Assembly (NCBI GenBank): GCA_963767115.1
Contig: CAVYCR010000012.1
Location: 16,598-80,597, forward strand
Length of the DNA stretch: 64,000 bases
From: Candidatus Kaiserbacteria bacterium
GTDB lineage: Bacteria > Patescibacteriota > Minisyncoccia > Phycocordibacterales > UBA2100
Direction of reading: 5' to 3'
Position numbers and translations under genes: made by a program. The first letter of the stretch is position 1. Each line of letters begins with the position of its first letter. Shown here in pieces: positions 1-57,920 of the stretch. The notes under the pieces were generated by a model. That model did not search any database. It was not told the origin of the DNA and worked only from the letters and a program-made list of their open reading frames with translations.

Positions 1-544
1 AATGCTCGAAAAAGAGTGACGCTATTTCTTCTTGTTCAGCTGGTGAAAAATTCTTCTCAATTTCAACTAAAGAAAGCTGGTATTTACTCTTAAATTGTTC
101 AATTTCCTTCTCAAGGGTCATAAACGGAGCCTCAGTAAGATTGAGTTCGTGGAGTTGTTTAAGAAATCCTCCAATCCGACGACCTATTAACTTTCGATCA
201 GCTTCGGTTAGATTTTCTATCGACAATTCAAGCCTATCTCCCATGATGCCTTCGTAGCCGAAGTAGTCGAGATAAGGGTGCTCCCATTTAACATTAGGAA
301 TGGCGATTTCAGTTTCAATCTGTGAGGCAAGTTTGTAGGCGGCAACTTCCAACTTGTACTGTTCTTTGATTTCTTCAGATCGAGGAAACTTAAAAACGAA
401 TTCACCCGAGTTAATTATATATACGCGACTATCCCAACCAATATCATTTACGACTATGCCTTTGTCATCATTTAATTGGAGTAAATCTAAAATCACCCTC
501 TTTTCTTGCTCTATTGGCTCTTTGTCTGCTATTTGTGACATCAT
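1..544 (-). CDS. phosphotransferase-family protein (APH/choline-kinase-like), N-terminal part; truncated by left window edge
   Basis: Hand translation of minus strand from ATGATG at 544/541: MMSQIADKEPIEQEKRVILDLLQLNDDKGIVVNDIGWDSRVYIINSGEFVFKFPRSEE... stays open to position 1. G-W-D-x-x-V-Y...F-K-F-P-R resembles the N-lobe of aminoglycoside/kinase-like phosphotransferases. Absent from the ORF track because it runs off the edge. Region is AT-rich. Confidence 0.55.
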   Translation of the reverse strand, partial: MMSQIADKEPIEQEKRVILDLLQLNDDKGIVVNDIGWDSRVYIINSGEFVFKFPRSEEIKEQYKLEVAAYKLASQIETEIAIPNVKWEHPYLDYFGYEGIMGDRLELSIENLTEADRKLIGRRIGGFLKQLHELNLTEAPFMTLEKEIEQFKSKYQLSLVEIEKNFSPAEQEEIASLFFEH

Positions 545-610
545 ACCTTCATTTTATCCTAAAAAGGATACGATAGCCCTCGTCATACCTCCGATACTTT
601 TTTCTTAAGG

Positions 611-681
611 CGGGCGATGAGGGAATCGAACCCCCGATAGCGGTTTTGGAGACCGCAGTTATGCCATTTAACTAATCGCCC
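611..681 (-). tRNA. tRNA-Trp (anticodon CCA)
   Basis: Reverse complement folds as a cloverleaf: acceptor GGGCGAT/ATCGCCC, anticodon stem GCGGT/ACCGC, loop CUCCAAA, T-loop TTCGATT. No encoded CCA. Confidence 0.85.
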
Positions 682-787
682 AAAACAGCTTGTAGCCGTT
701 AGCTTGTAGCTTATAGTTAAAATGCAAAAAATCCAACATTTTGAGTGGCTTTTCTACAAGCTACCAGCTATCAAGCTAAAAGCTATG

Positions 788-943
788 TTATTTCTTCGTC
801 TCCTTGAAGACGACGTGCTTGCGGAGCTTCTTGCTGTACTTCTTGAGAGTGACCTTGCGCTCGACGAGCTTCCTGTTCTTGCGCGTCCAATACACCTCGC
901 CAGTGGGCGCGTGCTTGAGCATTATCAATTGATCCTGCGACAT
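788..943 (-). CDS. rpmG: 50S ribosomal protein L33
   Basis: 51-aa ORF (below ORF-track cutoff), hand-translated: MSQDQLIMLKHAPTGEVYWTRKNRKLVERKVTLKKYSKKLRKHVVFKETKK. Typical L33 length and basic pattern; classic tRNA-Trp/rpmG neighbourhood. Confidence 0.8.
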   Translation of the reverse strand: MSQDQLIMLKHAPTGEVYWTRKNRKLVERKVTLKKYSKKLRKHVVFKETKK

Positions 944-996
944 AGTGTGTCAACTATAGCTGAAAAGGTACGATAAGTCAAAACACGAGCAGTCTC

Positions 997-1392
997 TTAG
1001 AGGTTGCAGACCGACCCCCAGGGTATGAGCGGCGCCCCCACGAGCGTCCGCATGACCGTGTCGACGACCAAGTACGCTGCCAAGATCACGACGAGCCCGA
1101 TCACGACATTGCCGAAGACTTGCTTGGCTTTCTTGAATTTGCCCGCGTCTCCCCCCGCCGTAGCGCTCAAGAAGCCTGCGTAGACGAAGGCGATCGCGGA
1201 GAAGAAGACGGCCAGATAGATGGCGTCGGTCAGCATGTTTTGGGCAAACTGCGCGATGTCGCAGATCGATGCACAACCGCCGGCGTTGTTGCAATCACTC
1301 GGCACGATCTGTACCAAACCTGCGGCGGAGGCGAGTGCAGGGGCCGAGACGATGACCGTCATCGCTATAGTCATGAGCCACAGGCGCCACAT
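997..1392 (-). CDS. TrbC/VirB2-like (T4SS-pilin-like) small membrane protein
   Basis: 131 aa with a signal peptide (…SAPALASAAG) and two hydrophobic helices flanking a GGDAGKFKKAK loop. Same architecture as the five tandem paralogs at 25.5-27.5 kb. Confidence 0.5.
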   Translation of the reverse strand: MWRLWLMTIAMTVIVSAPALASAAGLVQIVPSDCNNAGGCASICDIAQFAQNMLTDAIYLAVFFSAIAFVYAGFLSATAGGDAGKFKKAKQVFGNVVIGLVVILAAYLVVDTVMRTLVGAPLIPWGSVCNL

Positions 1393-1440
1393 ATGATGAA
1401 TATTGTATCACGCGGCAAAATGCGGCATACTAACACCACT

Positions 1441-1524
1441 GCGTCGGTGGCGGAGCGGTCAATCGCACTTGGCTGTAAACCAAGCGACTTCGGTCTACGG
1501 GGGTTCGAATCCCTCCCGGCGCAC
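1441..1524 (+). tRNA. tRNA-Tyr (anticodon GTA), long variable arm
   Basis: Acceptor GCGTCGG/CCGGCGC (one G-U), anticodon stem CTTGG/CCAAG, loop CUGUAAA, variable arm GAC-TTCG-GTC, T-loop TTCGAAT. Confidence 0.85.
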
Positions 1525-1530
1525 AAAAAG

Positions 1531-1567
1531 CCAAAGCCAGAGCATGTCTCTGGCTTTGTGCGTTTTT
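1531..1567 (+). terminator. intrinsic terminator-like hairpin after tRNA-Tyr
   Basis: CAAAGCCAGAG-catgt-CTCTGGCTTTG followed by TGCGTTTTT. Confidence 0.55.
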
Positions 1568-1570
1568 GTA

Positions 1571-1678
1571 GCGTCCGGAGGGATTCGAAAGCCGCAGCCG
1601 AAGCCCCGCACAGTAGTGCGGGCGGCGAGGCGGGGTCGCGAAAAAATACTTGCGGCGGCAAGTATTTTATTTGTGACC
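1571..1678 (+). repeat. tRNA-trailer structured repeat, array A (GGATTCGAAAGCC module, CAGTAG-loop hairpin, full unit 1627-1678)
   Basis: GAGGCGGGGTCGCG-aaaaaatacttgcggcggcaagtattttattt-GTGACC. The outer stem GGTCGC/GTGACC encloses an AT-rich inner hairpin. Homologous units lie at 12.1, 19.1, 25.4 and 57.7-57.9 kb. Confidence 0.7.
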
Positions 1679-2146
1679 GAACCTTATGGAGCATAACAAC
1701 CTCCAAGGCAGGAGATGCGACGGTACTGGTGAACATCCGACAGGCATTGTCGATGAAAGCGACTTCGACATCGACGACGAATATGACCCCGACGATGATG
1801 GTTCGTTTGACGTGCCTTGGGGTTAGGCAACACTGATCGCCTCAACGTAACCAAGCAAAGCCATGCATTCTGATTAACTGCTCAACCTAAATGCCGCTCG
1901 ATCCTCTGTGGGTCGGGCGGTTCTTTTTTGCTCAGGCTAAGTTTTTATTATGCATTCGCATCACTTTGTCCCGTACAGTCCTTTGCTGATAATGCCGCAA
2001 AAGGTTGCCCCCGAGGGGCCCAAAAAAATATAACCCGTAGTTATTTTTAGATTCTTTTCTTCTTCCTGTTTTGAGCCAACAGAAGGTCGGTGTATCTCAC
2101 AAAGATCATCAATGATATAATTCCGATCATAAGGTAACTGGAAATT

Positions 2147-2449
2147 ATGATACTCTTCCTCATTCTTGGGATCCTCTTGGGCGCCGCTGCAGTGCTCTTC
2201 GCGCTGCAAAACGTCACGGTAATAACGGTGAGTTTCTTCGCGTGGCATCTGCAAGGCTCACTTGCGCTCATTCTACTGGTGTCGATCGGGGTCGGCATGA
2301 TTATTTCCCTCCTCATCATTCTTCCCGAAAGTATTTCCAACTATTTCAACTTCAGGCGTCTCAAGAAAGAAAACGCGAACCTCGAAGAGGCTCTTCGCAA
2401 ACAAAAAGAACTGACCGTCTTCGCGAAGCAAGCTCCGCCGACTCTATAA
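2147..2449 (+). CDS. LapA-domain (DUF1049-like) small inner-membrane protein
   Basis: 100 aa. Two N-terminal TM helices are followed by a charged coiled tail (RRLKKENANLEEALRKQKEL), the typical LapA_dom layout. Confidence 0.55.
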   Translation: MILFLILGILLGAAAVLFALQNVTVITVSFFAWHLQGSLALILLVSIGVGMIISLLIILPESISNYFNFRRLKKENANLEEALRKQKELTVFAKQAPPTL

Positions 2450-2500
2450 ATAAAAAGAGGGCCAAGCAGATCATAGCGATCTGCCTGGCTGTGGCCTGCC

Positions 2501-2845
2501 CTATGGGCGGCCGAGAACGGTGACCTCAAGAGAGGCGACGCCATCCTGCTTCATGCCGAGGACTGTGGCGATCTGTGTCGAAACATCGAGATCCCGGTGG
2601 GTCCATTTCTCAGGACCATAATCGCGGACGACGCCAATCGTCGTTCTGCGAGTCTTTGGGTTATAGAGTCTGAGCATCGTTCCTTTGGGATATTTCCTGT
2701 TGGCGACGCAGTCCGCCTTGAACGGGCACGCATACCACGTGGTGACCATCGTCTCAGCGACAGCGGGCGCTGTAGAGATGAGACATGCCGATACCAGTGC
2801 GGAAGACAGCAGGCCCGTCGTCAAAGATGCGCTCATTCGAGACAT
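2501..2845 (-). CDS. RlpA-like double-psi beta-barrel (DPBB) secreted protein
   Basis: Start chosen at ATG 2845 (MSRMSASL…, RBS AAGGAAAA). Signal peptide, then TTWYAC…GTMLRLYNPKTRRTTIGVVRDYGP…RDLDVS…LG, matching the RlpA/DPBB pattern (WY…V.V.DRGP…R.iDLS). Confidence 0.55.
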   Translation of the reverse strand: MSRMSASLTTGLLSSALVSACLISTAPAVAETMVTTWYACPFKADCVANRKYPKGTMLRLYNPKTRRTTIGVVRDYGPEKWTHRDLDVSTQIATVLGMKQDGVASLEVTVLGRP

Positions 2846-2929
2846 TCGATTTTCCTTGTTGAACCCCCCGTGCGCTACCTTACTTCTTCTCTGATGAACA
2901 AGGCATGAAATGAGCACACAAAACATAAT

Positions 2930-2957
2930 TTGACAATGGTATATAATATGCTATAAT
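2930..2957 (+). promoter_or_regulatory. sigma70-like promoter (TTGACA-16 nt-TATAAT)
   Basis: TTGACA at 2930-2935 and TATAAT at 2952-2957, about 25 nt upstream of the ORF starting at 2982. Confidence 0.45.
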
Positions 2958-2981
2958 TTCGAGAGCACTAGGGAGAAGAAA

Positions 2982-3197
2982 ATGAAAGTTGTTATGATCC
3001 TCGGAATAGTCTTGATTTTGGGGACGCCCGCGCTTGCGGATCGTGGTAGTCCTCCGACCGCCGTACCGATCATCGAGAAAGCGAAGGCGCCGACCGAAGT
3101 GCCGCTGCAACCAGTCACGGGCAAAAAGAAATGCATGCCGTACTGGGAGCTGGGCGCTAACGGCGAGTGCACACCGCCGCACTATCCCGAAGAATGA
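2982..3197 (+). CDS. small secreted hypothetical protein
   Basis: 71 aa. RBS GGGAGAAG, signal peptide MKVVMILGIVLILGTPALA, consensus promoter upstream and terminator downstream. Confidence 0.5.
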   Translation: MKVVMILGIVLILGTPALADRGSPPTAVPIIEKAKAPTEVPLQPVTGKKKCMPYWELGANGECTPPHYPEE

Positions 3198-3218
3198 ATA
3201 ATCCGAACGTCGCAACGC

Positions 3219-3256
3219 AAAGGCCGCCCATACTTCGGGCGGCCTTTTACTTTTTA
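3219..3256 (+). terminator. intrinsic terminator between convergent genes
   Basis: AAAGGCCGCCC-atacttc-GGGCGGCCTTT followed by TACTTTTTAT. Confidence 0.6.
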
Positions 3257-3270
3257 TATTGTAAGGTGGC

Positions 3271-5972
3271 TTACGCTCGTGCTGCCGCTCGTGCGCGCAC
3301 CGAGTGCGATCGCTCCGGGCCTTTGCGCACGTCGAATTTGAATTCATCCTCAATGAAATCCACCTTGACCATTCCCCCTTCGAGCACGCCGCGTGCGACC
3401 ATCATGTTGGCGATTGGCGTGAGGATCTTGGTCTGGATCAGACGCTTCAAGGGGCGCGCGCCGTATTGCGGGTTGTAGCCATCTTTGGCGAGATGTTCGA
3501 TCGCCGCTTCGGTGAGCGTGAGCGTGATGCGCTTCTCTTCGAGGCGCTTCGCGACGATGTCGACCTGCATGCGGACGATATCCTTGATCGCTTCCGGCGT
3601 GAGAATGTTGAAGAGAATGATCTCGTCGAGACGGTTGAGGAACTCGGGTCGGAAGAATTCTTTGAGCGAATCCGTGACCTTGTCCTTGGCCTGCTCGTAG
3701 CGGTCGCTGCTCGGTGACCGATGAGCCCGCTACCGAAGCCGAGGCCCGACATCTTGTCGATGTGTTCGGCGCCGATGTTGCTCGTCATGATGATGACGCA
3801 GTTCTTGAAGTTGACCGTGCGACCCTTGGAGTCGGTGAGGCGGCCGTTGTCGAGGACCTGCAGAAGCACGTTGAAGACTTCTGGATGCGCCTTCTCGATC
3901 TCGTCGAAGAGGATGACGGAGTACGGGCGATGGCGCACGAGCTCCGTGAGGTCGCCGCCTTCGTCGTAGCCGACATAGCCTGGCGGCGAGCCGATCATTT
4001 TGGAGACGCGAGTGCTTCTCCATGTATTCCGACATATCGACGCGGATGAGCGATTTATCGCTCGTTGAAGAGGAATTCGGCGAGCGCGCGCGTGAGCTCG
4101 GTCTTGCCGACGCCGGTCGGACCGAGGAAGAGGAACGATCCGACGGGCCTGATTGGGGTCGGAGATGCCCGCGCGCGAGCGCTTGATGGCGTCGGAGACC
4201 TTCTGGACGGCTTCGTCTTGGCCGACGATGCGCGCCTTGAGGTCGACGTCCATGCGCGAAAGTTTCTCGGCTTCTTCTTCGAGCATGCGCGAAACCGGTA
4301 CGCCCGTCCAGCGCGAGACGACGCCGGCGATATCTTCCTCGGTGATCTCTTCTTTGAGGACGCGGCGCGTCTGCTGGAGCTTCTTGAGACGTTTCATCGC
4401 AGCTTCGATGTCGCGTTCGAGCGCCGGGATCGTGCCGTAGCGCATCTCGGCGGTCTTGGTGAGGTCGGCGATGTTCTCTGCGGCGTCGGCCTCGCGTGCG
4501 CGCTGCTTCGAGCTCGCCCTTGGCGGTCTTGATCTCGGCGAGCGTTTCTTTCTCGTTCTTCCATTTCATCTCAAGCTCGCGGGTGGAATCGCGAAGGTCG
4601 GCGACCTCGGCCTCGATTGTCTTCACACGCGTCTGTCGCTTTCTCGTCGCCTGCTTCGGCCTCTTTCTTCAGAGCTTCGCTTTCGATCTCGAGGCGCGTG
4701 ATCTTGCGGTGCGCTTCTTCAAGCTGACCGGCGGCATGTTCTCAAGCGAGAGGCGCAGCGCCGAAGACGCCTCATCGATGAGGTCGATCGCCTTGTCGGG
4801 GAGGAATCGCTCGGTGATGTAGCGCGTAGAAAGTTGCACGGCTGCAACGAGCGCGTCGTCGGTGATATGCACGCCATGATAGAGCTCGTAGCGCTCCTTG
4901 AGACCGCGCAGGATCGCGATCGGCGTCTTCGACAGACGGCTCGTTGACGTAGACAGGCTGGAAACGGCGCGTGAGCGCGGCATCGTGCTCGATGTGCTTC
5001 TGATATTCTTTAAGAGTGGTCGCGCCGATGACGCGCATTTCACCACGAGCAAGCGCGGGCTTGAGCATGTTGGAAGCATCCATCGAGCCTTCTGCGGCAC
5101 CGGCTCCCACGAGCGTGTGGATCTCGTCGATGAAAAGGATGATCTTGCCTTCGGAGCGTTCGACTTCTTTCATGACCGCCTTGAGACGCTCTTCGAATTC
5201 GCCGCGATATTTCGTACCGGCAATCAAGAGCCCAAGGTCGAGCTGGACGATCTCCTTGCCGCGCAAGGACTCTGGCACATCGCCGGAAGCGATGCGCTTG
5301 CAAGACCTTCGGCAACGGCGGTCTTGCCGACGCCTGCTTCGCCGATAAGGATGGGGTTGTTCTTGGTGCGACGCGAGAGGATCTGAATGACGCGCGTGAT
5401 CTCGGTGTCGCGGCCAATGACCGGGTCGAGCTTGTTCTCGCGAGCGCGCTCCGTGAGTGAACGCGCGAAGCGCGAGAGCGCGCGCGGTTTGCGACGCTGC
5501 TTCCGTGTCGCCGCGGATCTTGCCCTCCTTGATATCGGTGAGTACGCGAGCGAGCGCGGTGCGGTCGATGCGGAAACGCGCGAAGAGATCCGAGGCAGGG
5601 CCCGGATGTTCGGCAATACCGAGCAAGCAAGATGCTCGGGCGAGACGAACTGATCGTTGAAAGAAGCCGCGATGCGCGGCGCAGCCTCGAAGACGCGGAC
5701 GAGCTCTGGCGTGAGATAGAGTTGGAAGCTCGGAGAGACCGCGGTCGCGCCGCTCGAGCCTTCGATCATTTCGAGGACCGAATCAGTGAGATGCGCCGTG
5801 TCGATCTCGACTTGCTCGAGCATCGGCAAGACCATGACTCTCTTCTTGCATGAGAAGCGCGGCGAGCAAGATGCAGGGTCGAGACCTGGTTGTGGCCGCG
5901 CTCGACAGCAAGCTGATGCGCGCGATGGATCGCTTCCTTTGCTTTGGTCGTGTAGTTGTTGAATGGTGCCAT
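3271..5972 (-). pseudogene. clpB: ClpB chaperone (AAA+ disaggregase), reading frame broken roughly ten or more times
   Basis: ClpB-like segments are spread over all three minus frames of the ORF track. Segments: [22 protein letters not shown]…; …[15 protein letters not shown]…; …[16 protein letters not shown]…; …[21 protein letters not shown]; [17 protein letters not shown]; [18 protein letters not shown]…; …[10 protein letters not shown]…. Length 2702 nt is not a multiple of 3. Confidence 0.85.
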
Positions 5973-9697: not shown

Positions 9698-9822
9698 TAT
9701 GGTGGGACACTCGCGCGGAATAAGTATTTTGGGGTCTTTGCATCGCGGCGGCGCGAAACAGAGTTCTTTTTCAGCAGAAAAAGAACGACCCCAAAATACC
9801 TATTCCGCGCGAGTGTCCATAT
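9697..9822. repeat. long inverted-repeat element filling the infB-rbfA spacer
   Basis: Arms 9697-9736 and 9787-9822 (ATATGG(TG)GGACACTCGCGCGGAATAAGTATTTTGGGGTC vs its complement, few mismatches). The core contains the hairpin TTCTTTTT-CAGCAG-AAAAAGAA. Confidence 0.8.
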
Positions 9823-12078: not shown

Positions 12079-12289
12079 TTTTGAGGCCACAGTGGGAGTT
12101 CCACGGATAATTTCCTCGCCGTCGCTCGGAAATTTCCGTGGCCGAGCTCGCCGCCCGCGCTACTGCGCGGGACCCCGGCACCACAAGAGTACTTCCATTT
12201 TTCCAATCGGAATACCGCTAAGAAAAATTGGTCGCTGCGCTTTGCAACTCCCACCCTCAAAACTGCGTTTTGAGGCCACAGTGGGAGTT
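12079..12289 (-). repeat. 22-bp direct duplication of the tRNA-Cys 3' end bracketing a 167-bp insert made of tRNA-trailer repeat sequence
   Basis: TTTTGAGGCCACAGTGGGAGTT occurs at 12079-12100 and 12268-12289. The second copy is the 3' end of tRNA-Cys. The insert 12101-12267 carries a minus-oriented unit (…CGCGCAGTAGCGCGGGCGGCGAG-CTCGG-CCACGG…CCGTGG). Confidence 0.8.
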
Positions 12290-15344: not shown

Positions 15345-15417
15345 CCGCCCGTAGCTCAGTTGGTAGAGCAGTCGCCTCTTAAGCGAACGGTCGTTGGTTC
15401 GAATCCAACCGGGCGGA
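15345..15417 (+). tRNA. tRNA-Lys (anticodon CTT)
   Basis: Acceptor CCGCCCG/CGGGCGG, D-loop AGCTCAGTTGGTAGAGC, anticodon loop CUCUUAA, T-arm GTTGG-TTCGAAT-CCAAC. Confidence 0.9.
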
Positions 15418-16360
15418 CACTATAGGACTTTGCGAGTAGATTTCCTCATAATCGCTTTGGTTCATGCGGTCTTTTTGAGGTTCGAGCGCTGCGTGAATAT
15501 CGCGTATCGCATCCGCGAGCCTTCGCATGGGCAAAAGCGTTTTCTCCACGTCAATGCCCACTATTCTGTCTTTCAGCGTGAGGTTCGAGCCGATCGCAAG
15601 GAAGATGCGGCGGCGCTTCTCCAAACTGCCATTCTCAAACTCCTCTTTGGCGCGGGTAACGAACTTAAATGCGCTTTCCATGTTGTTTGCCCAGCGCGTG
15701 ATCCGCGCATCCGTATCGTTCAAGAGTCCAAAGCGGCGTTTTTTCTCCTTGAGCCAGTGTTCCTTCTTTTCTCGGTACTCATCCTCGCTCAACTCCTCAC
15801 GAGCCCGCATATCGGAGTATCGGTCGAGCATCTGTACCGCCTCATCGTAGGATTTTTGCTGCGTGGTGCGTATACCCTCGCGCAGGTCGATCTCTTTTGC
15901 GTTTTCGTTCTCCAGCCACTTCATGCCCCATTGGTGGAAACTGTCGGGAAACTCGAACTTCATCAGCTTGTCGGTTATCTGCTCCATCAATTTCGACTCT
16001 TCGATTGAACCCTGCGTGCACGGCCCACTTTTTTTGGTGCAGTGATAGTAGATGTAGCGGTGGACGTTGCCGTTTTTCTGCGTCTTTATTTTCTCCTCGG
16101 CGGTGATCGCCAAGCCACACTCGCCGCATTTCATCGTGCCGATAAAGGCGAACGCGCGGCTTTTTGGCCGAGGTCGTCCGCGCCTGCCGAGCAATGCCTG
16201 CACTCTGTCGTACTCGTCTATCGTTATCATCGGCTCGTGTGCGCCCTGATACCAGTTGCCGCTTCCGCGCGGCCACTCAAACGAGCCGTAGTAAAACGGG
16301 TTGGTGAGCAGGTGGTAGATGTTGCTACGCGCCATCAGTCTCGACTTGCTCCTCTTGTGG
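15379..16360 (-). pseudogene. large serine recombinase, C-terminal two-thirds only (catalytic resolvase domain missing)
   Basis: …RLMARSNIYHLLTNPFYYGSFEWPRGSGNWYQGAHEPMITIDEYDRVQALL…GTMKCGECGLAITAEEK…YIYYHCTKK… gives the recombinase-domain end, zinc ribbon and coiled coil. Upstream of about 16360 the 539-aa ORF is read-through with no resolvase motifs. The last 13 codons are tRNA-Lys sequence. Confidence 0.75.
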
Positions 16361-16384
16361 GGTCGCATCCGGAGCCCCCATTCG

Positions 16385-16606
16385 GCCGCATTCCTCAGTC
16401 GCGACGAGAAAATGCCGTATGTGCGGCTCGCCGCGCGGAAGATCGACGCGCTCAAACTGCTTCTGATGGTTCTCTGGGAAACGAAATCACTCGAGCCGAA
16501 GAAATATGCCGCGCTCTCGGAAAAGATGGACGAAATCGGCAAGATGCTCGGCGGATGGGGCGGACAGCTTAAAAAACAAAACTCCCCCGCCAAAAAAGAT
16601 AATTGA
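16385..16606 (+). pseudogene. four-helix-bundle protein (Avd / 23S-IVS-protein family) C-terminal fragment
   Basis: …RLAARKIDALKLLLMVLWETKSLEPKKYAALSEKMDEIGKMLGGWGGQLKK matches the C-terminal half of CPR-type four-helix-bundle proteins. The N-terminal half is absent, and the fragment lies head-to-head with the truncated recombinase. Confidence 0.5.
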
Positions 16607-16628
16607 CGGAGGAGAAACGGAGAGAGTA

Positions 16629-16763
16629 GCGGAGACGGAACACGATGCGATTGTCGAGCTTCCAGCGATCGTCGGGATTTGTCCAATCGTTGTTGAGCCA
16701 CAACTTGCCGTCGTCGTTGCGCTTCACATCGAAGACGTTCGGGTTGCCATCGGAGTCGGGATT
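16629..16763 (-). repeat. DGR template repeat (TR)
   Basis: 135-nt repeat of 17107-17241. It holds 34 adenines (minus strand), 17 of which are substituted in the other copy. No other position differs. In the VR frame it translates to an Asn/Asp/Lys-rich peptide. Confidence 0.85.
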
Positions 16764-17061
16764 GTGCGCCGCGCCATCTATGCCACTGCCCGTCGAATAC
16801 TCTCAGGGCTGAATCTAATTCGGGATCTAAAATCCACCAGCGCAACGCACCAAGTATCTTCGTTTTTTGAAGTTTCTGCATACACCACGCCGTTTCAAAC
16901 CGTAATCGGAAACGTTCCGGATGTATGGATACTGGTTTCGGCAGCGGGAAACCGTAATCGCCCGCATATTCGCCTACTACCGCTCCTAAGTGTATCAAAA
17001 AGAATGAGCCCTCGGCGCGAGATGCGTCGAGGACTCGAATGCAAGGGCAAAGCCCAAAGGA

Positions 17062-17790
17062 TCAAGTGCAGTGCAAGGGTAAAACAGCCGAAGCCGAGGA
17101 TACCTTGCGGAGACGGAACACGACGCGATAGTCGAGCCCCCAGCGACCGTCGGGACTCGTCCAACCGTCGTAGAGCCACAACCTGCCGTCGTCGTTGCGC
17201 TCCACAGCGAAGACGTACGGGTGGCCAACGGAGTCGGGAATCCGTTCCATCGCAATCCACAGGACTTCGCCTTTCGGCTGATCCTTGTATTGGATTGCGA
17301 GATGCGGGCCGGTCTCAGCGGGACAGAGATCGAGGACGTGGCCGTCGAGGTTCGCTTCGCTCCACGCCGTGAGGCGCTTCACGTCGAAAAGCTCGGTGGT
17401 CGTCGGGTTCTCGGTGAAGCCGAGATCCGCCGGGCACAGGTCGATCAGCGTGATCATCTCCGGCTCGGCGAGCGTGGTGAACAGCTTGTGGTTCATCATG
17501 CTTTTGGCGTAGCCGCTGATTTCGCGGGTTGCCGTTCCGAGCTGCACGATGAGATCGTCCTTCGACACGCCGCCGATCAAGATCGGCATCGTGCGGATGA
17601 AACGACCGCGCAAGCCACTCGCAAATGGGGTGAGCTTGCCTTCGGTCATGCCCTGCAGAGTAGCGATGACACGCTCAGGATCGAGCGCGGTATCGTTCTG
17701 TAGGAAAACCTGTCGCTGCAACTCAGCGATTCTCTTTGAGATCCGGTGAGCTTGGTCGCGGTCAACAACGAACCTTTCGGTCGTCGCCAT
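17062..17790 (-). CDS. DGR target (variable) protein, no signal peptide
   Basis: Start at ATG 17790 (MATTERF…, RBS GGAGG). The C-terminal roughly 45 aa are encoded by the VR. The …NRIVFRLR ending is reminiscent of the conserved end of C-type-lectin-fold VRs; the fold assignment is an inference. Confidence 0.7.
   Translation of the reverse strand: MATTERFVVDRDQAHRISKRIAELQRQVFLQNDTALDPERVIATLQGMTEGKLTPFASGLRGRFIRTMPILIGGVSKDDLIVQLGTATREISGYAKSMMNHKLFTTLAEPEMITLIDLCPADLGFTENPTTTELFDVKRLTAWSEANLDGHVLDLCPAETGPHLAIQYKDQPKGEVLWIAMERIPDSVGHPYVFAVERNDDGRLWLYDGWTSPDGRWGLDYRVVFRLRKVSSASAVLPLHCT
17107..17241 (-). repeat. DGR variable repeat (VR) at the 3' end of CDS 17062..17790
   Basis: In frame with the target CDS (…IPDSVGHPYVFAVERNDDGRLWLYDGWTSPDGRWGLDYRVVFRLR). 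It differs from the TR only at TR adenines (A>G x10, A>T x5, A>C x2). Confidence 0.85.
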
Positions 17791-17953
17791 AACAACCTCC
17801 ACTATGATTGCTGCTGCGAAATCGCACTTAGGCATCGCGTTTGCTTTGCCGCAGCGGAAAGAAGCTCTAACAGAGCCGCTTTCAGCTGTGGCAAATGTCT
17901 AAACCGCTGTGTGAAAGATCGAATCACGATTATACATTTGTGCGGACTCCGTG

Positions 17954-18301
17954 TCAACTTGCTGCGGTAATGTGTCCGGCCTCAAGCATCCCCTTAAACC
18001 TTCGACTTCGATATTCCAGTCCAAGGCACTTCCTGCAGCCGATTGCACCCGTGAACGGATGCACAAAAAGCGTTCCGGCGCGGTGAGCGCCGAGCGGACA
18101 CTTGAACCAATATCGAGTACCGCCGAATTGTGTCTTTGAGGGCATCAGCTCGATTGTTAGATTGTAGAGCGCGATCTCTGTCGCGATCAGTTCCTTTTTC
18201 AGCCTCGCTTTTGCTTTGCGGAGATACGCAGAGATCGAGACGCGCTGACAGTCCTCCACCAAAATTGGTGTTCCTGAATCGTATGGGCGTGATACTTTCA
18301 C
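17954..18301 (-). CDS. hypothetical protein with putative zinc ribbon
   Basis: 115 aa. …RYWFKCPLG…GCRKCLGLEY gives a C-x-n-C…C-x2-C arrangement. The start overlaps the stop of the upstream gene by 4 nt. Lies inside the tRNA-Lys island. Confidence 0.4.
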   Translation of the reverse strand: MKVSRPYDSGTPILVEDCQRVSISAYLRKAKARLKKELIATEIALYNLTIELMPSKTQFGGTRYWFKCPLGAHRAGTLFVHPFTGAIGCRKCLGLEYRSRRFKGMLEAGHITAAS

Positions 18302-18924
18302 GGTTTTGCAGGTGTCGCGTTGATTTGCTGGTTGCCCGCCACAAAAGCGTTCTTGGCTCTTATATTCACCTCGAGCTGCGGTTGCTTGATCTGCCTCAAC
18401 ATTGCGAACGACGATAAGAACTGCCTGTGCGCTCGGTCAATCTGTTTGCTCATCACTGCAAGGAGGTGGTTCTGCTCAGAGGAAGTGGAATCTCCGGGTA
18501 CATAACTGTTGTACCGCTTTGAACTATCGATATATCGAACAAACGAGCCTGCGATGGTTTCAGCAAGCATTTTCTCCATGTGAGTTGAGCAGTTGTTTTC
18601 CCGTATGATCTGGGCACAGAGCTCTTTTGCCATACCGCGATATTTTTCATTAAAGCTGTCCATCAGAGCAACATGAGTCTCGACCTCAAGCGCGAACATT
18701 GCAGATAGCGCCGGTTCCTGAAGCTCCCTTTGCTCCTCATCTTTATCACGCCTACCTTTGGATTTCGGTCTTGAAAAGATCTCGCTACAGCGCTCAAGCG
18801 CGTCGCCAAGATCTCCTTTTACTTTTGAGTTTTGTAGCAGTAGCGCTTTTGCGTCTTCTGGCGTGTAGCGTTTTACGAGAGCCTTCGATTTCTGTATTGG
18901 CGTGCTTGGGCTGGGCATCTGCAT
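18298..18924 (-). CDS. hypothetical protein (island-encoded)
   Basis: 208-aa ORF, lower GC than the core genome. No recognisable family. Confidence 0.4.
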   Translation of the reverse strand: MQMPSPSTPIQKSKALVKRYTPEDAKALLLQNSKVKGDLGDALERCSEIFSRPKSKGRRDKDEEQRELQEPALSAMFALEVETHVALMDSFNEKYRGMAKELCAQIIRENNCSTHMEKMLAETIAGSFVRYIDSSKRYNSYVPGDSTSSEQNHLLAVMSKQIDRAHRQFLSSFAMLRQIKQPQLEVNIRAKNAFVAGNQQINATPAKP

Positions 18925-19034
18925 AAAGTAAATCTGACGTTGTGCTGCTCATGCAACGATATCAAAAGCCGTGCAGTAAAACGGGCTCGGCTCTCCGGCG
19001 GCCTCTATAAAAATGGTTCGAGCGTCGTACAACA

Positions 19035-19230
19035 GGGCGGACAAGTACACAACAACGTTGCGGGGCAACGTTTTGTGACTTGTCCGGGCCGCAGCTCGTT
19101 TCGCGAGCTCGCGAAACGAGCGAGGCGGGGTCGCGGAAACTCTTTTGAGGCGACAAAAGAATTATCCGTGACGACATGAACTCTCCAAGGCGGGCCCGCG
19201 CAAATTTTCAGTAGAAAATTATGCGTGGGG
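19035..19230 (+). repeat. tRNA-trailer structured repeat, array B (three units: 19035-19090, 19122-19172, 19187-19230)
   Basis: Unit 1: GGCGGACAAGT…ACTTGTCC. Unit 2: GAGGCGGGGTCGCGG…CCGTGAC. Unit 3: AAGGCGGGCCCGCG-caaattttCAGTAGaaaattatg-CGTGGGG. Outer stems differ in sequence but stay complementary. Confidence 0.7.
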
Positions 19231-25278: not shown

Positions 25279-25360
25279 GGGCAGATGGCGGAATTGGTAT
25301 ACGCGCCAGCCTTAGGAGCTGGTCCCGCAAGGGTTGGGAGTTCGAGTCTCCCTCTGCCCA
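25279..25360 (+). tRNA. tRNA-Leu (anticodon TAG)
   Basis: Acceptor GGGCAGA/TCTGCCC, anticodon stem CCAGC/GCTGG, loop CUUAGGA, long variable arm, T-loop TTCGAGT. Confidence 0.85.
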
Positions 25361-25488
25361 CCGAAGCGAAGCGAAGAGTGGTCAGAGAGCACAGTGCGGG
25401 GCACTGTGCGTGGAGACTCGAAAGCCGGACCCACCTTGGGCGGGGAGGCGGGGTCGCGCAAAATTTCAGCAGAAATTTATGCGTGACC
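25361..25488 (+). repeat. tRNA-trailer structured repeat, array C (unit 25445-25488)
   Basis: GCACAGTGC-ggg-GCACTGTGC hairpin, GGAGACTCGAAAGCC module, then GAGGCGGGGTCGCGC-aaaatttCAGCAGaaatttat-GCGTGACC. Confidence 0.7.
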
Positions 25489-25530
25489 GAGCTCCCTCTA
25501 CTTATAGATAGTATGAAGGAAAGCTAAAAA

Positions 25531-29413: not shown

Positions 29414-29547
29414 GCCGTAATTATACCGCGCCGCAAGCATTATTTGTTGCGCTGCTGGGGAGATGTACAGTGTGCGGAAACCCAAGCACAAAAGACGACG
29501 TGAAAACGCCTTCGAAAAATCTCGCGGGCATCATCTTTGTTTTGAAT

Positions 29548-30334
29548 ATAGTGATGTCGGACATCGCTATTTATTGTATTTGGAATTGGATGATACAATA
29601 GTGTGTAATGGGGGTCGGGGTCTACCATGCTCTGAATCGCGGCGTCGACAAACGTCAGACTTTTATGTGTGAAATAGATTATGTGCGTTTCGTGCATGAT
29701 CTCTACGAATTTAACGACGTACATCCAGCAACAAACACATGGTATGAATTCAAAAATAGTGATGTCCGACATCCCTATATCGTGCGCGAACGGCAACCCA
29801 TCGTGCAGATTCATGCGTGGTCGCTTATGGAAAACCACTACCACTTGCTCCTCTCAGAAATCCGCGAAGGTGGCATTACGTCATTCTTACGAAAAATTAA
29901 TACCGGGTATACGAATTATTTCAATGACAAATACGAACGAAGCGGCGTATTGTTCCAAGGCAAGACGAAGAAGATTCTCATCCATGAGGAAGCTCATTTC
30001 TTACATATGCCGCATTACATACACTTGAATCCGCTCGATTATCTGGAAGGCGCAAGCGATTGGCGCTCATATGCCCTAGAAGACCCAGTTGCCGCGCTCG
30101 AGTATCTTTCTACCTATCGTTGGAGCAGCTATCTCGATTACTGCAACATGGATAATTTTCCTTCTATCATAGAGAAGGGTCTGTATTCGGATATATTTCC
30201 AGACTACGCCCCAACGATCAAATCCTACTTACAATCTTTAGATAGACCTTCAATCGATCTCGAACCAGTGACTTTGGAATAAAAATCAATACTATGGCTT
30301 ATTTCTTATATATTAGTGATGTCCGACATCACTA
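29548..30334 (+). mobile_element. RAYT/IS200-like Y1-transposase cassette 1 with flanking REP-type hairpins
   Basis: Hairpins ATAGTGATGTCgGACATCGCTAT (29548-29570) and TAGTGATGTCcGACATCACTA (30314-30334) flank the transposase in opposite polarity. A third copy (29756-29778) lies inside the CDS. Confidence 0.65.
29608..30282 (+). CDS. HUH/Y1 tyrosine transposase (REP-associated, IS200-like fold)
   Basis: 224 aa. YHALNRGVDKRQTF…, HUH motif MENHYHLLL, and catalytic-Tyr helix HMPHYIHLNP. Confidence 0.7.
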   Translation: MGVGVYHALNRGVDKRQTFMCEIDYVRFVHDLYEFNDVHPATNTWYEFKNSDVRHPYIVRERQPIVQIHAWSLMENHYHLLLSEIREGGITSFLRKINTGYTNYFNDKYERSGVLFQGKTKKILIHEEAHFLHMPHYIHLNPLDYLEGASDWRSYALEDPVAALEYLSTYRWSSYLDYCNMDNFPSIIEKGLYSDIFPDYAPTIKSYLQSLDRPSIDLEPVTLE

Positions 30335-30344
30335 TTTTTGATCA

Positions 30345-32856
<2,512 letters not shown>

Positions 32857-34491: not shown

Positions 34492-35622
34492 ATGACAGAC
34501 GAAACAAAGGCTCCCGAAATGGAGCTCGATAACGAGACAGTGGTCTCGTCAGACATTACTACCAAGGAAGGCCCGATGGCCGAACTCCTCAAGAACGCTG
34601 GCAAGCCGCCTGCGCTCGACGACGTGGTCGAAGGACCGGTCGTTGCTGTGGGCCGCGCGCGCGTCTTCATCGACCTGCATCCGTACGGCACCGGCATCAT
34701 CTACGGCCGCGAATACCTCTCGGCGCGCGAGACGTTGAAAAATGTAAACATCGGCGACGTCGTGACGGCGAAGGTCGTCGGCACCGACAACGCCGAAGGC
34801 TACGTCGAGCTCTCGCTGCGCGAGGCGCGCCAAGCCCTGATGTGGAGCGAAGCGGAAGTCGGCACTGCAGAAGAAGACTGTCTTCGAACTCGAGATCAGC
34901 GACGCCAACAAGGGCGGACTCATCATCAACTGGAACGGCATCCAAGGATTCTTGCCGGCATCGCAACTCGGCACAGCGCACTATCCGCGCGTCGCTGACG
35001 GCGACAAGGACAAGATCTTCGTCGAGCTCAAGCGCATGATCGGCACCAAGATCGAGGTCATGATCATCACCGCGAATCCCGAAGGAGCAGAAGCTGATCT
35101 TCAGCGAGAAGGGCGCGGCCCCGACCGAGCGCGGATCGCTCGTGGAGAAATACCATGTCGGCGATACGATCGACGGCATCGTCACCGGCGCGACGGAGTT
35201 CGGCGTCTTCGTGAAGCTCGAGGAAGGCCTCGAGGGCTTGGTGCACATCTCGGAGATGGACTGGGCGCTCGTCGAAAACCCGAAGACCCGCTACAAAGGC
35301 GGCGACGCGGTGAAGGTCAAGGTCATCGAGATCAAGGACGACAAGATCTCACTCTCGATCAAGGCGCTCTTGGAAGATCCGTGGAAATCCGCTGCCGCGA
35401 AGTACAAGAAGGACCAGCGCGTCGAGGCAGTCGTCATCAAGTACAACAAGCACGGCGCACTCGCCTCTATCGAGGAAGGTGTCGCGGGCTTGGTGCACAT
35501 CTCGGAGTTCGGCAAGCGAAGACGAGCTGCGCGCGAAGCTCGAGCTCGGCAAGGTGTATCCGTTCACGATCACCTTCTTCGAGCCGAAAGAACGCCGCAT
35601 GACTCTCAAACCCATCGCCTGA
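34492..35622 (+). pseudogene. rpsA: 30S ribosomal protein S1 (short, multi-S1-domain) with three apparent frameshifts
   Basis: S1-domain segments lie in three frames. Segments: …GPVVAVGRARVFIDL…; …LIINWNGIQGFLPASQLG…; …GDTIDGIVTGATEFGVFVKLEEGLEGLVHISEM…GVAGLVHISEFG; the tail …ELGKVYPFTITFFEPKERRMTLKPIA ends at TGA 35620-35622. Breaks are near 34860, 35090 and 35517. Net length is a multiple of 3. Confidence 0.85.
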
Positions 35623-36421
35623 GGTTAAACCTCGACAAATATAAGCCACATTTCCACCCGTCGAGGTTAAACCTCGACGGGTTTTGGCTTTTTGCGGTAT
35701 ACTATTTACATGGCGCGAGGGGTCACGCTAGCTCAGGGAGAGTTTTATCATATTTACAACCGCGGAACTGACAGGCGGCGAGTCTTTGAAACACATCATG
35801 ATTACGATCGTTTTTTAGCGCTTCTTTTCATTTGCAATCAGGCGCATCCGATTCAGAATCAAATTCGCGAACTGACATCAGATATATTTATTCTCGCAAG
35901 AAACACGGACACTATTGTTGATATAACCGCGTATTGTTTGATGCCCAATCATTTTCATATTGTAGTCAGGGAAAAGACGGACGGAGGTATTAGCAAATTC
36001 ATGCAAAAGGTCACGACCGGCTATACCATGTACTTCAATAAGAAATACGAGCGCACTGGAAGCTTGTTCGAGGGCACCTTCAAAGCACAACACGCGGCCG
36101 ACGACGAATATCTAAGGTACCTGCTCACCTATGTTCATTTGAATCCAGTAAAACTTTGGGATCCAGACTGGAAAACAAACGGGATTAGAGACCTAGTCAA
36201 GACCATGCAGGATTTGGACGAGTACAAATACTCGAGTTACAAGGAATACGTTGGGAAGTTTCGTCCTGAGAGTTCCATATTAAATAGGACTGTTCTGCCC
36301 GAATACTTTAATTTACCAAGAGATTTCAAGTCCGAGCTTATGGATTGGCTTACAATCCGAGGTTAAACCTCGACAACGTTAAGCCATTTTTTGGCATTTG
36401 AGGTTTAACCTCGACAAATAT
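35621..36421 (+). mobile_element. RAYT/IS200-like Y1-transposase cassette 2, bounded by 22-bp direct repeats and paired REP palindromes
   Basis: GAGGTTAAACCTCGACAAATAT (35621-35642) and GAGGTTTAACCTCGACAAATAT (36400-36421) bound the cassette. Further GAGGTTAAACCTCGAC copies lie at 35660-35678 and 36359-36374. The cassette sits exactly between the rpsA stop and the pth stop. Confidence 0.7.
35710..36366 (+). CDS. HUH/Y1 tyrosine transposase (REP-associated, IS200-like fold), paralog 2
   Basis: Start at ATG 35710 (MARGVTLAQGEFYHIYNRGTDRRRVF…). HUH motif MPNHFHIVV; Tyr helix YLLTYVHLNP. The stop codon lies inside a REP copy. Confidence 0.7.
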   Translation: MARGVTLAQGEFYHIYNRGTDRRRVFETHHDYDRFLALLFICNQAHPIQNQIRELTSDIFILARNTDTIVDITAYCLMPNHFHIVVREKTDGGISKFMQKVTTGYTMYFNKKYERTGSLFEGTFKAQHAADDEYLRYLLTYVHLNPVKLWDPDWKTNGIRDLVKTMQDLDEYKYSSYKEYVGKFRPESSILNRTVLPEYFNLPRDFKSELMDWLTIRG

Positions 36422-37012
36422 TCAATTAAACGCATTCATCGCGATCTGCGGACCTTTGGTGACGATCAACCCGATCGCTTCGCCCGCTTTTTTGAAGACT
36501 TTTTTCAATTCATCGCCCTCGGAGACTTTGAAGCGCGCGAGAATGAATTCCGCCACCTCATCTTCGCCCTTGGGCTTCTTGAGCGTGCCAGCAGGTGTCG
36601 ACGGCGAGATGCCGATGCGCACGCGGGTAAACTTTTTTGTCTTCAAGGCGGTCATGATCGACTCGACACCCTTGTGTCCCCCACTTCCACGGTCAAACGA
36701 GAGCTTGAACGTGCCTACAGAGAGGTCGAGATCGTCATACACGACGATCAGGCGTTCTGCGGCCTTGACTGACTTCACATATTTGCCTACCGCAGCGCCC
36801 GATTTGTTCATAAAGGTGTCGGGCAAGACGAGAGCTGCAAGAGTTTTGTCGATTGCGCCCTTCGCGACTGTCGCTTTTGCATTTTTGTCTTCCTTCCAAT
36901 CACTGAAGTTATGACTTCTTGCAAAATGTTCGAGCATCATGCGACCCGTGTTGTGCCGCGTGCCCACGTATTCCTCTCCAGGATTCCCGAGACCGACGAT
37001 TACCCATGTCAT
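36422..37012 (-). CDS. pth: peptidyl-tRNA hydrolase
   Basis: Start at ATG 37012 (MTWVIVGLGNPGEEYVGTRHNTGRMM…). Also …LPDTFMNKSG… and …DDLDLSVGTFKL…GGHKG…. Confidence 0.9.
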   Translation of the reverse strand: MTWVIVGLGNPGEEYVGTRHNTGRMMLEHFARSHNFSDWKEDKNAKATVAKGAIDKTLAALVLPDTFMNKSGAAVGKYVKSVKAAERLIVVYDDLDLSVGTFKLSFDRGSGGHKGVESIMTALKTKKFTRVRIGISPSTPAGTLKKPKGEDEVAEFILARFKVSEGDELKKVFKKAGEAIGLIVTKGPQIAMNAFN

Positions 37013-41227: not shown

Positions 41228-41347
41228 GAGACATATCGGGCCACGCAGTATTTTGCCGGCTACGCAGGCGCGACGGCGCCGAGTCCGAGCGCTGGGTCAG
41301 CAGACCCAGATAGCGACGGCAAAATACTGCGTGGCCCGATATGTCTC
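41228..41347. repeat. long inverted-repeat element in the ftsA-ftsZ spacer (perfect 31-bp arms)
   Basis: GAGACATATCGGGCCACGCAGTATTTTGCCG (41228-41258) and its exact complement (41317-41347). Core: GCTACGCAGGCGCGACGGCGCCGAGTCCGAGCGCTGG-GTCAGCAGAC-CCAGATAGCGA. Confidence 0.85.
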
Positions 41348-57563: not shown

Positions 57564-57619
57564 ATCGAATAAGCTAAAACTACCGAAAATCAGACCATTC
57601 TGCTATACTAGCCCCGTTG

Positions 57620-57692
57620 CGCGGTTAGCTCAGTTGGTAGAGCATCGTCTTGACGTGACGAGGGTCATAGGTTCGAGTCCTATACCGCGCAC
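57620..57692 (+). tRNA. tRNA-Val (anticodon GAC)
   Basis: Acceptor GCGCGGT/ACCGCGC, D-loop AGCTCAGTTGGTAGAGC, anticodon stem TCGTC/GACGA, loop UUGACGU, T-loop TTCGAGT. Confidence 0.9.
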
Positions 57693-57920
57693 AAACCGAC
57701 GACAGGCAGGTTTGTGCGAGCCGGAGGCCGGCGGGCCGAGGCGGGGTCGCGCAATTTTCCAGCAGGAAAATATGGGTGACCACAAGAATGAAAAAGAGTG
57801 CCTGCGCACTGTTTTTTCATTACCAGTGCGGGCCCGGAGCTATGTTTCGCCAGCAGGTGAAACCAGCGAGGCGGGGTCGCGGAAATTTTCGAGCGACGGC
57901 GAGAAAATTATCTGTGACCA
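57693..57920 (+). repeat. tRNA-trailer structured repeat, array D (units 57739-57782 and 57869-57920)
   Basis: Unit 1: GAGGCGGGGTCGCGC-aattttcCAGCAGgaaaatatgg-GTGACC. Unit 2: GAGGCGGGGTCGCGG-aaattttcgagcgacggcgagaaaattatc-TGTGACC. Each is preceded by its own hairpin (e.g. GTTTCgCCAGCAGgTGAAAC). Confidence 0.75.

Follow-up and report, generated by a model that had tools for sequence, protein, structure and literature searches.

A strand-specific three-helix element at gene ends of Patescibacteria, probably a small mobile repeat

In IS608, guide bases beside a bulged hairpin choose the sites at which the transposase TnpA cleaves, and genomic islands that target tRNA genes have integrase sublocations in the T-loop and at the tRNA 3′ end. 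A REP palindrome measures 20-40 nucleotides (nt) and carries a GTAG or CGTC tag at one end (PMC3733652), and a gene flanked by palindromes is the classical arrangement of a REP-associated tyrosine transposase (RAYT; PMC5581495). Here we describe an element that is kin to such small structured non-autonomous repeats, found in a stretch of 64,000 nt from a Candidatus Kaiserbacteria bacterium (GenBank assembly GCA_963767115.1, contig CAVYCR010000012.1, positions 16,598 to 80,597; hereafter the window), where an initial annotation had reported a family of hairpin units trailing tRNA genes. The element has a strand-specific three-helix fold, is associated with the ends of genes, which are duplicated around it, forms tiny inserts and has a patchy distribution. 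It is probably a small (~90-200 nt), non-autonomous 'selfish' mobile element that carries a spare gene end and forms arrays by repeated insertion, its mobility being read from its architecture. Neither Rfam 15 nor the searchable literature (subscription journals lie outside that coverage) holds a description of it, and it apparently represents a small fold undescribed so far. The same literature yields group I introns in tRNAs of Patescibacteria, which are unrelated to the element.

Architecture, covariation and described relatives

Copies parsed from other genomes share one plan, which reads in order: the 3′ arm of helix P1 (anti-X), one base, GCC, GGA, helix P2, GA, GGC, GGG and helix P3. 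P1 is formed by a segment X that pairs with the complementary anti-X downstream, across an intervening loop of 1-125 nt. The GCC pairs with GGC, enclosing a GGA/GA internal loop and the variable hairpin P2, whose commonest form is GCGC-GACG-GCGC. P3 is composed of GUCGCG, a variable stem rich in A/U, the loop AGCA, a bulged A and the end YGUGAC, and the sequence right after GTGAC, here called X′, repeats the end of the gene. The parts GCCGGA, GAGGCGGGGTCGCG and GTGAC and the loops GACG and AGCA are near-invariant. The repeat unit described in the initial annotation is real and corresponds to the right-hand part (linker and P3) of this larger element. The 'further hairpin' noted before the units is likewise present, as helix P2, and the 'GGA(C/T)TCGAAAGCC module', also written 'GGAYTCGAAAGCC module', exists but is really anti-X plus the junction A-GCC: its sequence reverse-complements, without a mismatch, the T-loop and T-stem 3′ strand of the upstream tRNA, and A-GCC follows.

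Searching the window for the exact 14-mer GAGGCGGGGTCGCG returned five occurrences, at 1627, 19122, 25445, 57738 and 57868 (chance expectation by our own arithmetic ~5e-4 in 128 kb, both strands), and confirmed the unit coordinates given previously to within one base. Together with two divergent units, at 19187-19230 on the plus strand and 12101-12143 on the minus strand, the window holds seven units. A covariance model recovered the same seven copies with no other strong match, plus two weak matches, which are divergent relatives at 9705-9818 and 41228-41347. ARAGORN and Rfam place nine tRNAs in the window, five of which (Tyr, Cys, Lys, Leu-TAG and Val) have same-strand units behind them; all seven units lie downstream of a tRNA and co-oriented with it, as had been reported, but the two divergent relatives are not beside tRNAs. 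Each unit forms a single extended hairpin in which one base, always at the same position on the 3′ side, is bulged (folding z-scores -2.4 to -4.9). One variant of P3, TTATGCGTGACC, was considered as the XerC arm of a dif site and dropped, its TATGCG part not being conserved among copies.

The compensatory changes first noted between units, from GGTCGCG/CGTGACC to GCCCGCG/CGTGGGG and to CCACGG/CCGTGG, are both real, and alignment of copies from other genomes extends them. In a gapless alignment of 20 sequences 98.2% of cells pair and 13 of 22 pairs have changed on both sides, whereas sliding the columns by 1-3 positions gives 32-47% pairing. Among 100 matches aligned by fitting to the covariance model, 97.1% of cells are paired and 18 of the 22 pairs have changed on both sides, against 34-46% pairing after sliding by 1-3 columns. 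In this larger set the GCC/GGC helix covaries as well (GC to UA, CG to GC). At one pair of P3, 93 of 96 copies have G.U, and at another 47 have G.U and 43 G-C. Because the complementary strand would carry A.C mismatches at these conserved G.U pairs, the fold belongs to one strand. Unguided minimum free energy folding recovers P1, the GCC/GGC helix with P2, and P3; for the copy behind tRNA-Val described below (Val-a), folded as RNA, the minimum is -52.4 kcal/mol on the plus strand vs -41.5 kcal/mol on the other. These results bear out the proposal that the fold is kept by compensatory change and forms on one fixed strand of a single-stranded nucleic acid. The accompanying view, that selection acts on the fold rather than on sequence, stands for the fold only, since ~25-30 nucleotides of the junctions and loops hardly vary over many bacterial classes.

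As the initial annotation had supposed, no Rfam family covers the element: Rfam 15 reported only tRNAs in the window and nothing on the element, the Leu copy had no relevant match at E<=10, and 14 loci from other genomes returned rRNA, tRNA and group I intron matches only. A group I intron was seen at 2811-3054 of locus L031, in the 23S rRNA gene of a Saccharibacteria metagenome-assembled genome; the 5S rRNA gene with an antisense element lies in the same locus.

The closest comparison is with the REP/REPIN-RAYT systems (PMC3116915, PMC5581495, PMC3733652), whose repeats are likewise short, non-coding, interspersed hairpins, single-stranded, non-autonomous and present in many copies per genome; moreover, the window contains a single-copy, syntenic RAYT-like gene flanked by palindromes. 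However, where a REP is a single palindrome or a doublet, the element has three helices with invariant junctions, and it is linked to gene ends and brings a duplicate of one; its core is conserved across classes whereas REPs are lineage-specific, and the RAYT-like gene is flanked by an AGG-N5-CCT repeat, not by the element. No GTAG or CGTC tag occurs in the element alignments, in which P3 is preceded by GAGGCGG(G) and P1 by GG. With the IS200/IS605 family the element would share a strand-specific folded single-stranded DNA (ssDNA), a bulged hairpin and a short complementary 'guide' beside the hairpins that would define the joining place; a circle junction would, we reason, join the right to the left end, and there would be no true target duplication. 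In contrast to that family, the pairing extends over 7-20 nt vs 4 nt, one module serves both ends and a gene end is carried.

Integron attC sites and the attP of CTX-type phages also act as a folded single strand in which stem sequence varies with pairing kept and one extrahelical base is conserved, and an inverted copy of the site lies near one end of integrated CTX, as anti-X does here. Unlike these, the element has a target that varies and matches P1, and a strongly conserved core sequence. The attC boxes R″ (RYYYAAC) and R′ (GTTRRRY), cassette arrays and intI were all looked for and absent, the element ending in N-GCC... and ...GTGAC, and none of the ~50 window open reading frames (ORFs) scanned encodes a Phage_integrase-type protein. 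Rickettsia palindromic elements and MITE-like repeats are selfish palindromic repeats tolerated inside genes, as this one is in a uvrC gene, and two copies with a long P1 resemble MITEs with long inverted ends. The difference is that here the conserved part is internal and coding insertions are rare, the uvrC copy being the only convincing in-frame case in ~125 copies. MITEs have terminal inverted repeats common to all their copies and a short target duplication; such a common repeat is absent here: P1 arms differ, and the two long-P1 copies have only GTATTTTG in common. On a defining point, the element falls outside REP/REPIN, attC/CTX, tRNA-targeting islands and Rickettsia palindromic elements, and it may also fall outside the IS200/IS605 family.

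Helix P1 and duplicated gene ends

The arrangement is clearest behind tRNA-Val(GAC) (57619-57692; this gene and the copies that follow are on the plus strand unless stated). The last bases of the tRNA, from 57688, are the 5′ arm X of P1 in Val-a (57688-57780; 82.3 bits with the covariance model). X, CGCACAAACC (57688-57697), spans the end of the tRNA and is followed after an 11-nt loop by its complement, the anti-X GGTTTGTGCG (57709-57718). The core then runs through A, GCC (57720-57722), GGA, P2 (57726-57737) and GA-GGC-GGG (57738-57745) into P3 (57746-57780), which ends in GTGAC (57776-57780), and X′ (57781-57786, CACAAG) repeats the CACAAA of the tRNA end and trailer. A second copy, Val-b (57805-57918; 39 bits), has a P1 of CGCACTG (57805-57811) with CAGTGCG (57824-57830); its P2 is long, its 14-mer occupies 57868-57881, and its P3, also long, ends in GTGAC (57914-57918), with X′ CACAAGG at 57919. 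Val-b would be an older copy, displaced downstream.

At tRNA-Tyr the element (1504-1677) reaches further into the gene: X, TTCGAATCCCTCC (1504-1516), comprises T54-C65 of the tRNA, and anti-X, GGAGGGATTCGAA (1577-1589), is its exact reverse complement. The P1 'loop' here includes the acceptor 3′ strand and a terminator-like hairpin with a T-run (1530-1567); the 14-mer (1627-1640) and GTGAC (1673-1677) follow, and a decayed copy of the tRNA 3′ end begins at 1678. Behind tRNA-Leu(TAG) the element (25341-25499; 68.9 bits) pairs X TTCGAGTCTCC (25341-25351) with the matching complement GGAGACTCGAA (25412-25422), has its core at 25423-25487 with GTGAC at 25483-25487, and ends in X′ CGAGCTCCCTCT (25488-25499), a displaced copy of the tRNA 3′ end. 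Within 19015-19172, Lys-a follows a displaced tRNA-Lys 3′ end (19015-19043), with X GGACAAGT at 19039-19046, anti-X ACTTGTCC at 19078-19085, the 14-mer at 19122-19135 and GTGAC at 19168-19172, and is followed by Lys-b (19187-19230), a truncated copy consisting of P3 alone, without P2, whose pairs have changed compensatorily to CCCGCG/CGTGGG. The divergent element behind tRNA-Cys (12080-12289, minus strand; 14.7 bits) is bounded by a perfect 21-nt direct repeat, AACTCCCACTGTGGCCTCAAA, present in the 3′ part of the tRNA (12269-12289) and in a displaced copy (12080-12100); the 168 nt between the repeats contain P2 (12153-12173) and P3 (12101-12143). The earlier statement that the units resemble no known att site is thus qualified, as direct repeats of the tRNA 3′ end flank the elements.

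Both divergent relatives form three-way junctions in which P1 pairs perfectly over 31-32 nt, and each takes up the intergenic space that follows a stop codon. The first (9705-9818; folding z -13.6) follows a protein gene, its 32-nt P1 closing P2 CGCGGCGGCGCG and P3 TTCTTTTTCAGCAGAAAAAGAA; the second (41228-41347; z -12.3) follows an ftsA-like gene and has a 31-nt P1, P2 GGCGCGACGGCGCC and a P3 with a CAGCAG loop. They retain the usual P2 and P3 loop motifs (GGCG/GACG and AGCA), their junction strands differ, and TATAGATATG follows each.

These features recur in other genomes. Anti-X is complementary either to the T-loop and T-stem of a tRNA or to its acceptor end, X beginning at T54 or at the last acceptor bases, and X coincides with a conserved gene's end at the majority of sites. 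In 57 of 100 copies a perfectly complementary X of 8 nt or more is present within 200 nt upstream, where we estimate ~2-4% by chance, and in 36 of these 57 GG stands before X. Elements of IS200/IS605 type insert beside a set short sequence, have strand-specific hairpin ends and leave no target duplication. Anti-X also pairs with X′ above shuffled partners (3.5 vs 1.3 contiguous pairs), more weakly than with X. Direct repeats of the gene end measure 19-60 nt: at L035 a perfect 57-nt repeat includes 36 nt of trailer, while at L058, L059, L107, L053 and L116 repeats of 19-21 nt stop at the tRNA end. Their spacing is 93-201 nt, an insert size that leaves no room for a gene. Two other origins, one for anti-X and one for the repeats, were ruled out: that anti-X is a copy of the T-stem 5′ strand, by L053, in which the T-loop is not palindromic, and that the gene ends are template and variable repeats of a diversity-generating retroelement, by L021, where differences between the copies are not adenine-specific.

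A direct repeat of the tRNA 3′ part at both insert ends is also a trait of tRNA-targeting islands: these duplicate that part, make the gene whole with the copy that they bring and displace the old end. Integrases that target tRNA genes use T-loop and acceptor or 3′-end positions, and the repeats around the element start in the T-loop or at the acceptor end and extend as far as the tRNA 3′ end. The copies could accordingly be attR-side scars of ordinary integrase islands or prophages in tRNA genes, with the core a piece beside attP, and in the window an island with a serine recombinase in tRNA-Lys does adjoin two units. Nevertheless, we regard this origin as highly improbable. The inserts are uniformly tiny, the core adjoins the repeat with no base in between and has an anti-X that matches, and the Lys island lies upstream of the units and is separate from them, which is why it was dropped as their source. 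A single true match was found in 2.9 million viral contigs (L127) and none in plasmid and phage collections. Two larger inserts, L097 (2.5 kb) and L088 (1.1 kb), also examined as possible autonomous copies, have no recombinase-like ORF as judged by eye. Furthermore, the element is 100-200 nt long, lacks an integrase, has a structured core with anti-X and occurs at protein genes and 5S rRNA as well.

The Lys island itself spans 3.6 kb (15419-19014), between tRNA-Lys (15345-15418) and the displaced, degenerate copy of its 3′ end. Its large serine recombinase (ORF 15379-16998, minus strand) overlaps the tRNA with its 3′ end, its remaining ORFs have no Pfam match, and it contains a 133-nt direct repeat of 88% identity (16629-16761 and 17107-17239). 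A parallel arrangement is seen at L014, where a 631-aa serine recombinase overlaps tRNA-Ala. The viral-collection contig L127 (IMG/VR, 1-3319), the only one with true copies, carries a tandem array beside tRNA-like ends and may be a mis-binned Patescibacteria fragment or a prophage edge.

Distribution and sites beyond tRNAs

Scanning one genome per species with the pattern GAGGCGGGGTCGCG-N16-42-GTGAC returned at least 120 loci. Among the matches listed ~90 were true copies, the remainder being chance matches in GC-rich genomes; the true copies among them came from Saccharibacteria, Paceibacteria, Kaiser-, Adler-, Nomura-, Taylor-, Yanofsky- and Berkelbacteria, WWE3 and Minisyncoccia, and six from Elusimicrobia. 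The core was found in more than 90 genomes covering most Patescibacteria classes and Elusimicrobia, and the units are therefore not a repeat family of one genome. The confirmed copies number 123: 70 follow a same-strand tRNA within 400 nt, 12 precede one on the same strand, 3 follow a tRNA of the opposite strand, and 38 have no tRNA near them; 27 isoacceptors serve as targets. The tRNA link and the co-orientation are thus strong, but they are not universal. Tandem units were seen in L013, L016 and L050. Occupancy varies widely: in 550 kb around RAYT-like genes of other Patescibacteria there were 4 matches, with about one of ~17 tRNAs occupied.

At several other sites, too, the element adjoins duplicated or displaced gene ends. 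In L021 and L095 it stands at the 3′ end of a topA-like gene, in the order gene, diverged replacement end with its own stop and hairpin, anti-X, core and original end; the same layout is repeated after an rplL-like gene in L115, and in L081 the diverged 'spare' end has its own stop or terminator. At the 5′ end of GH1 genes (L006, L086) the element lies between a displaced start fragment and a new start, and in L045, L062 and others it lies upstream of tRNAs, adjoining a displaced 5′ tRNA fragment. Antisense copies stand beside 5S rRNA together with displaced 5S fragments (L003, L031) and, in L065, within a tRNA T-loop. A 93-nt copy in L014 (3418-3510) is in frame and stop-free inside uvrC, adding 31 residues, VRRGRGPVARPERGGVRRGRANLQQQIMRD, between conserved Cys motifs. 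The occurrence at protein genes, in uvrC and at antisense sites argues against an obligatory role as an RNA processed from tRNA precursors.

These sites bear on a second explanation, a functional cis-acting RNA: a 3′-trailer module whose anti-X pairs with the T-arm or acceptor end of the tRNA, affecting its folding, processing, stability or termination, and of which the duplicated ends are by-products. The preponderance of copies downstream of same-strand tRNAs, the fold on the sense strand with its G.U pairs kept, the highly conserved junction and loop nucleotides, and the anti-X of the Tyr and Leu copies, still perfectly complementary to the functional tRNA despite a decayed X′, all speak for such a module. 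Against it, most tRNAs of other Patescibacteria lack the element, as does the orthologous tRNA-Val(GAC) of a species ~70% identical in AlkA, and copies occur antisense to 5S rRNA and tRNA, in frame in uvrC and at GH1 5′ ends. At tRNA-Tyr and in L081 the core comes after a terminator-like hairpin, and displaced pseudo-ends and tandem arrays are unexpected for a regulator. We therefore consider a cis-acting role unlikely. An intrinsic terminator would be a GC-rich hairpin leading straight into a T-run, whereas P3 is A/T-rich inside and gives way to X′ (CG.. or CA..), with no T-run.

A third explanation, that the core is a new self-cleaving or self-splicing three-way-junction ribozyme, acting at GG|X and GTGAC|X′ and spreading through an RNA intermediate as an intron-like or circular-RNA retroelement, we judge quite unlikely from the sequences at hand. 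The size, the three-way junction, the invariant junction strands and a conserved G.U beside the junction do resemble small ribozymes; the boundary of the repeated gene end coincides exactly with the P3/P1 junction, and removal of X...GTGAC would, by our reasoning, rejoin an intact gene. Likewise, theta (minimal HDV-like) ribozymes are small structured RNA motifs right downstream of phage tRNAs (PMC10879173), but the element is cellular, not phage-borne, has duplicated tRNA ends and also occupies non-tRNA sites. No HDV-like fold or Rfam HDV match was found for it, small self-cleaving ribozyme cores (hammerhead, HDV-like/theta, twister, pistol and hatchet) gave no match, and by inspection its junction strands, A-GCC-GGA and GA-GGC-GGG, do not fit the hammerhead or HDV topology. 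No known ribozyme family was matched even at E<=10, and nothing found speaks positively for catalysis. The uvrC copy keeps the reading frame open, as an unspliced insert should, and antisense copies would not be co-transcribed with their target. A published study reports that Patescibacteria lack group II introns (PMC13011429), which would remove one source of reverse transcriptase, though not others.

We favour a mobile element that carries a spare gene end. Its working form would be one strand folded into the three helices, moving as folded ssDNA with the help of a strand-transferase provided in trans. Excision or circularisation would link GTGAC directly to X and let P1, P2 and P3 close into a three-way junction that gathers both ends of the element and, in the chromosome, both flanks; with the ends meeting at the junction, the geometry would suit a strand-transfer enzyme that acts on folded single strands. 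By bringing a spare copy of the gene end, insertion would leave the gene intact, while the old end would be displaced downstream and decay there. Repeated insertion at the same site, together with tandem duplication, would generate the arrays that trail tRNAs, in which the copy closest to the tRNA would be the most recent; Val-a ahead of Val-b, with CACAAG after both, would be an example of such serial insertion. It is possible, if doubtful, that the anti-X arm picks the insertion point by base-pairing, that the invariant core is a handle for a conserved host enzyme or is itself catalytic, and that the spare end neutralises the damage.

A candidate partner enzyme, neighbouring features and significance

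The only candidate found for an enzyme acting in trans on the element is a RAYT-like HUH/Y1 transposase gene (35710-36366, plus strand), with four AGGTTWAACCT hairpins at 35622, 35664, 36360 and 36401. The ORF matches Pfam Y1_Tnp at 37.6 bits, above the cut-off; its best NCBIfam model is REP_Tyr_transpos (REP-associated tyrosine transposase), at 44 bits against a cut-off of 80, and HUH-like (HFH) and tyrosine motifs are present as judged by eye. Homologues number thousands at 50-60% identity, those with a named source being all from Patescibacteria, and the single-copy gene keeps its synteny (Y1, HIT, Pth, signal peptidase and onward to FtsA). At 80 other Patescibacteria loci, AGG-N5-CCT palindromes that are genome-specific stand on either side of the Y1 gene, many of them T-arm-like, for example AAGGTTCGACCTT and GGTTCGACC. 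Within 35621-36432 the four hairpins read GAGGTT(A/T)AACCTC, with ..TAAGCC after each. In the window these hairpins occur only around the Y1 gene and are different from the three-helix element. That this transposase is the partner of the element seems rather unlikely.

Several observations weigh against the mobile-element interpretation, and some of them against the transposase in particular. The palindromes flanking Y1 vary between genomes whereas the core of the element does not, and a Y1 homologue is nearby in 1 of 129 element-bearing loci. A core that hardly changes between such remote lineages is more suggestive of an RNA that is catalytic or binds protein than of the end of a transposon; this conservation is itself overstated, as the search pattern demanded an unaltered 14-mer and GTGAC and every seed sequence contains the 14-mer. 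At L065, P1 bears no relation to its target, and matching by anti-X is thus not universal. Where X′ has decayed, at tRNA-Tyr and tRNA-Leu, the perfect complementarity of anti-X to the functional tRNA suggests that the kept pairing could have a function in place, and how anti-X comes to match a new target is left unexplained by mobility. No pair of close strains with and without an element at the same site was obtained, and no circle junction was seen. The nearest relatives are only ~70% identical, and an apparent 155-nt polymorphism at L133 proved to be a run of N.

Elsewhere in the window, a 26-nt palindromic motif, AATATAGTGATGTCGGACATCGCTAT, occurs three times (29545-29570, 29753-29778 and 30310-30335) around an ORF without Pfam match (29608-30282), and its copies look like putative operator or binding sites. 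On the minus strand at 30345-32279, gyrA-like sequence is split between ORFs, with DNA_gyraseA_C repeats at 30345-30956 and a partial DNA_topoisoIV domain at 31383-32279, which may reflect an intervening sequence, a frameshift or an artefact of crude ORF picking. Two AAA+ ORFs (3447-4445 and 4772-5626) have a similarly fragmented look.

Patescibacteria have very small genomes in which few mobile elements have been described, and the element would be a family spread across the group. Up to 7-9 copies are present in these 64 kb, and the ends of tRNA, 5S rRNA and protein genes are reshaped without being inactivated. The element accounts for stray tRNA-end fragments and for long structured tRNA 'trailers', and the covariance model serves their annotation. 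It is set apart from REPs, MITEs and attC sites by an invariant three-way junction, a helix that tracks the neighbouring gene and a duplicated gene end, which together suggest a targeting principle. If base-pairing does set the target, the element would be a tiny reprogrammable DNA-insertion module used across Patescibacteria and useful to genome engineers; if the core is catalytic, it would represent a new class of ribozyme.

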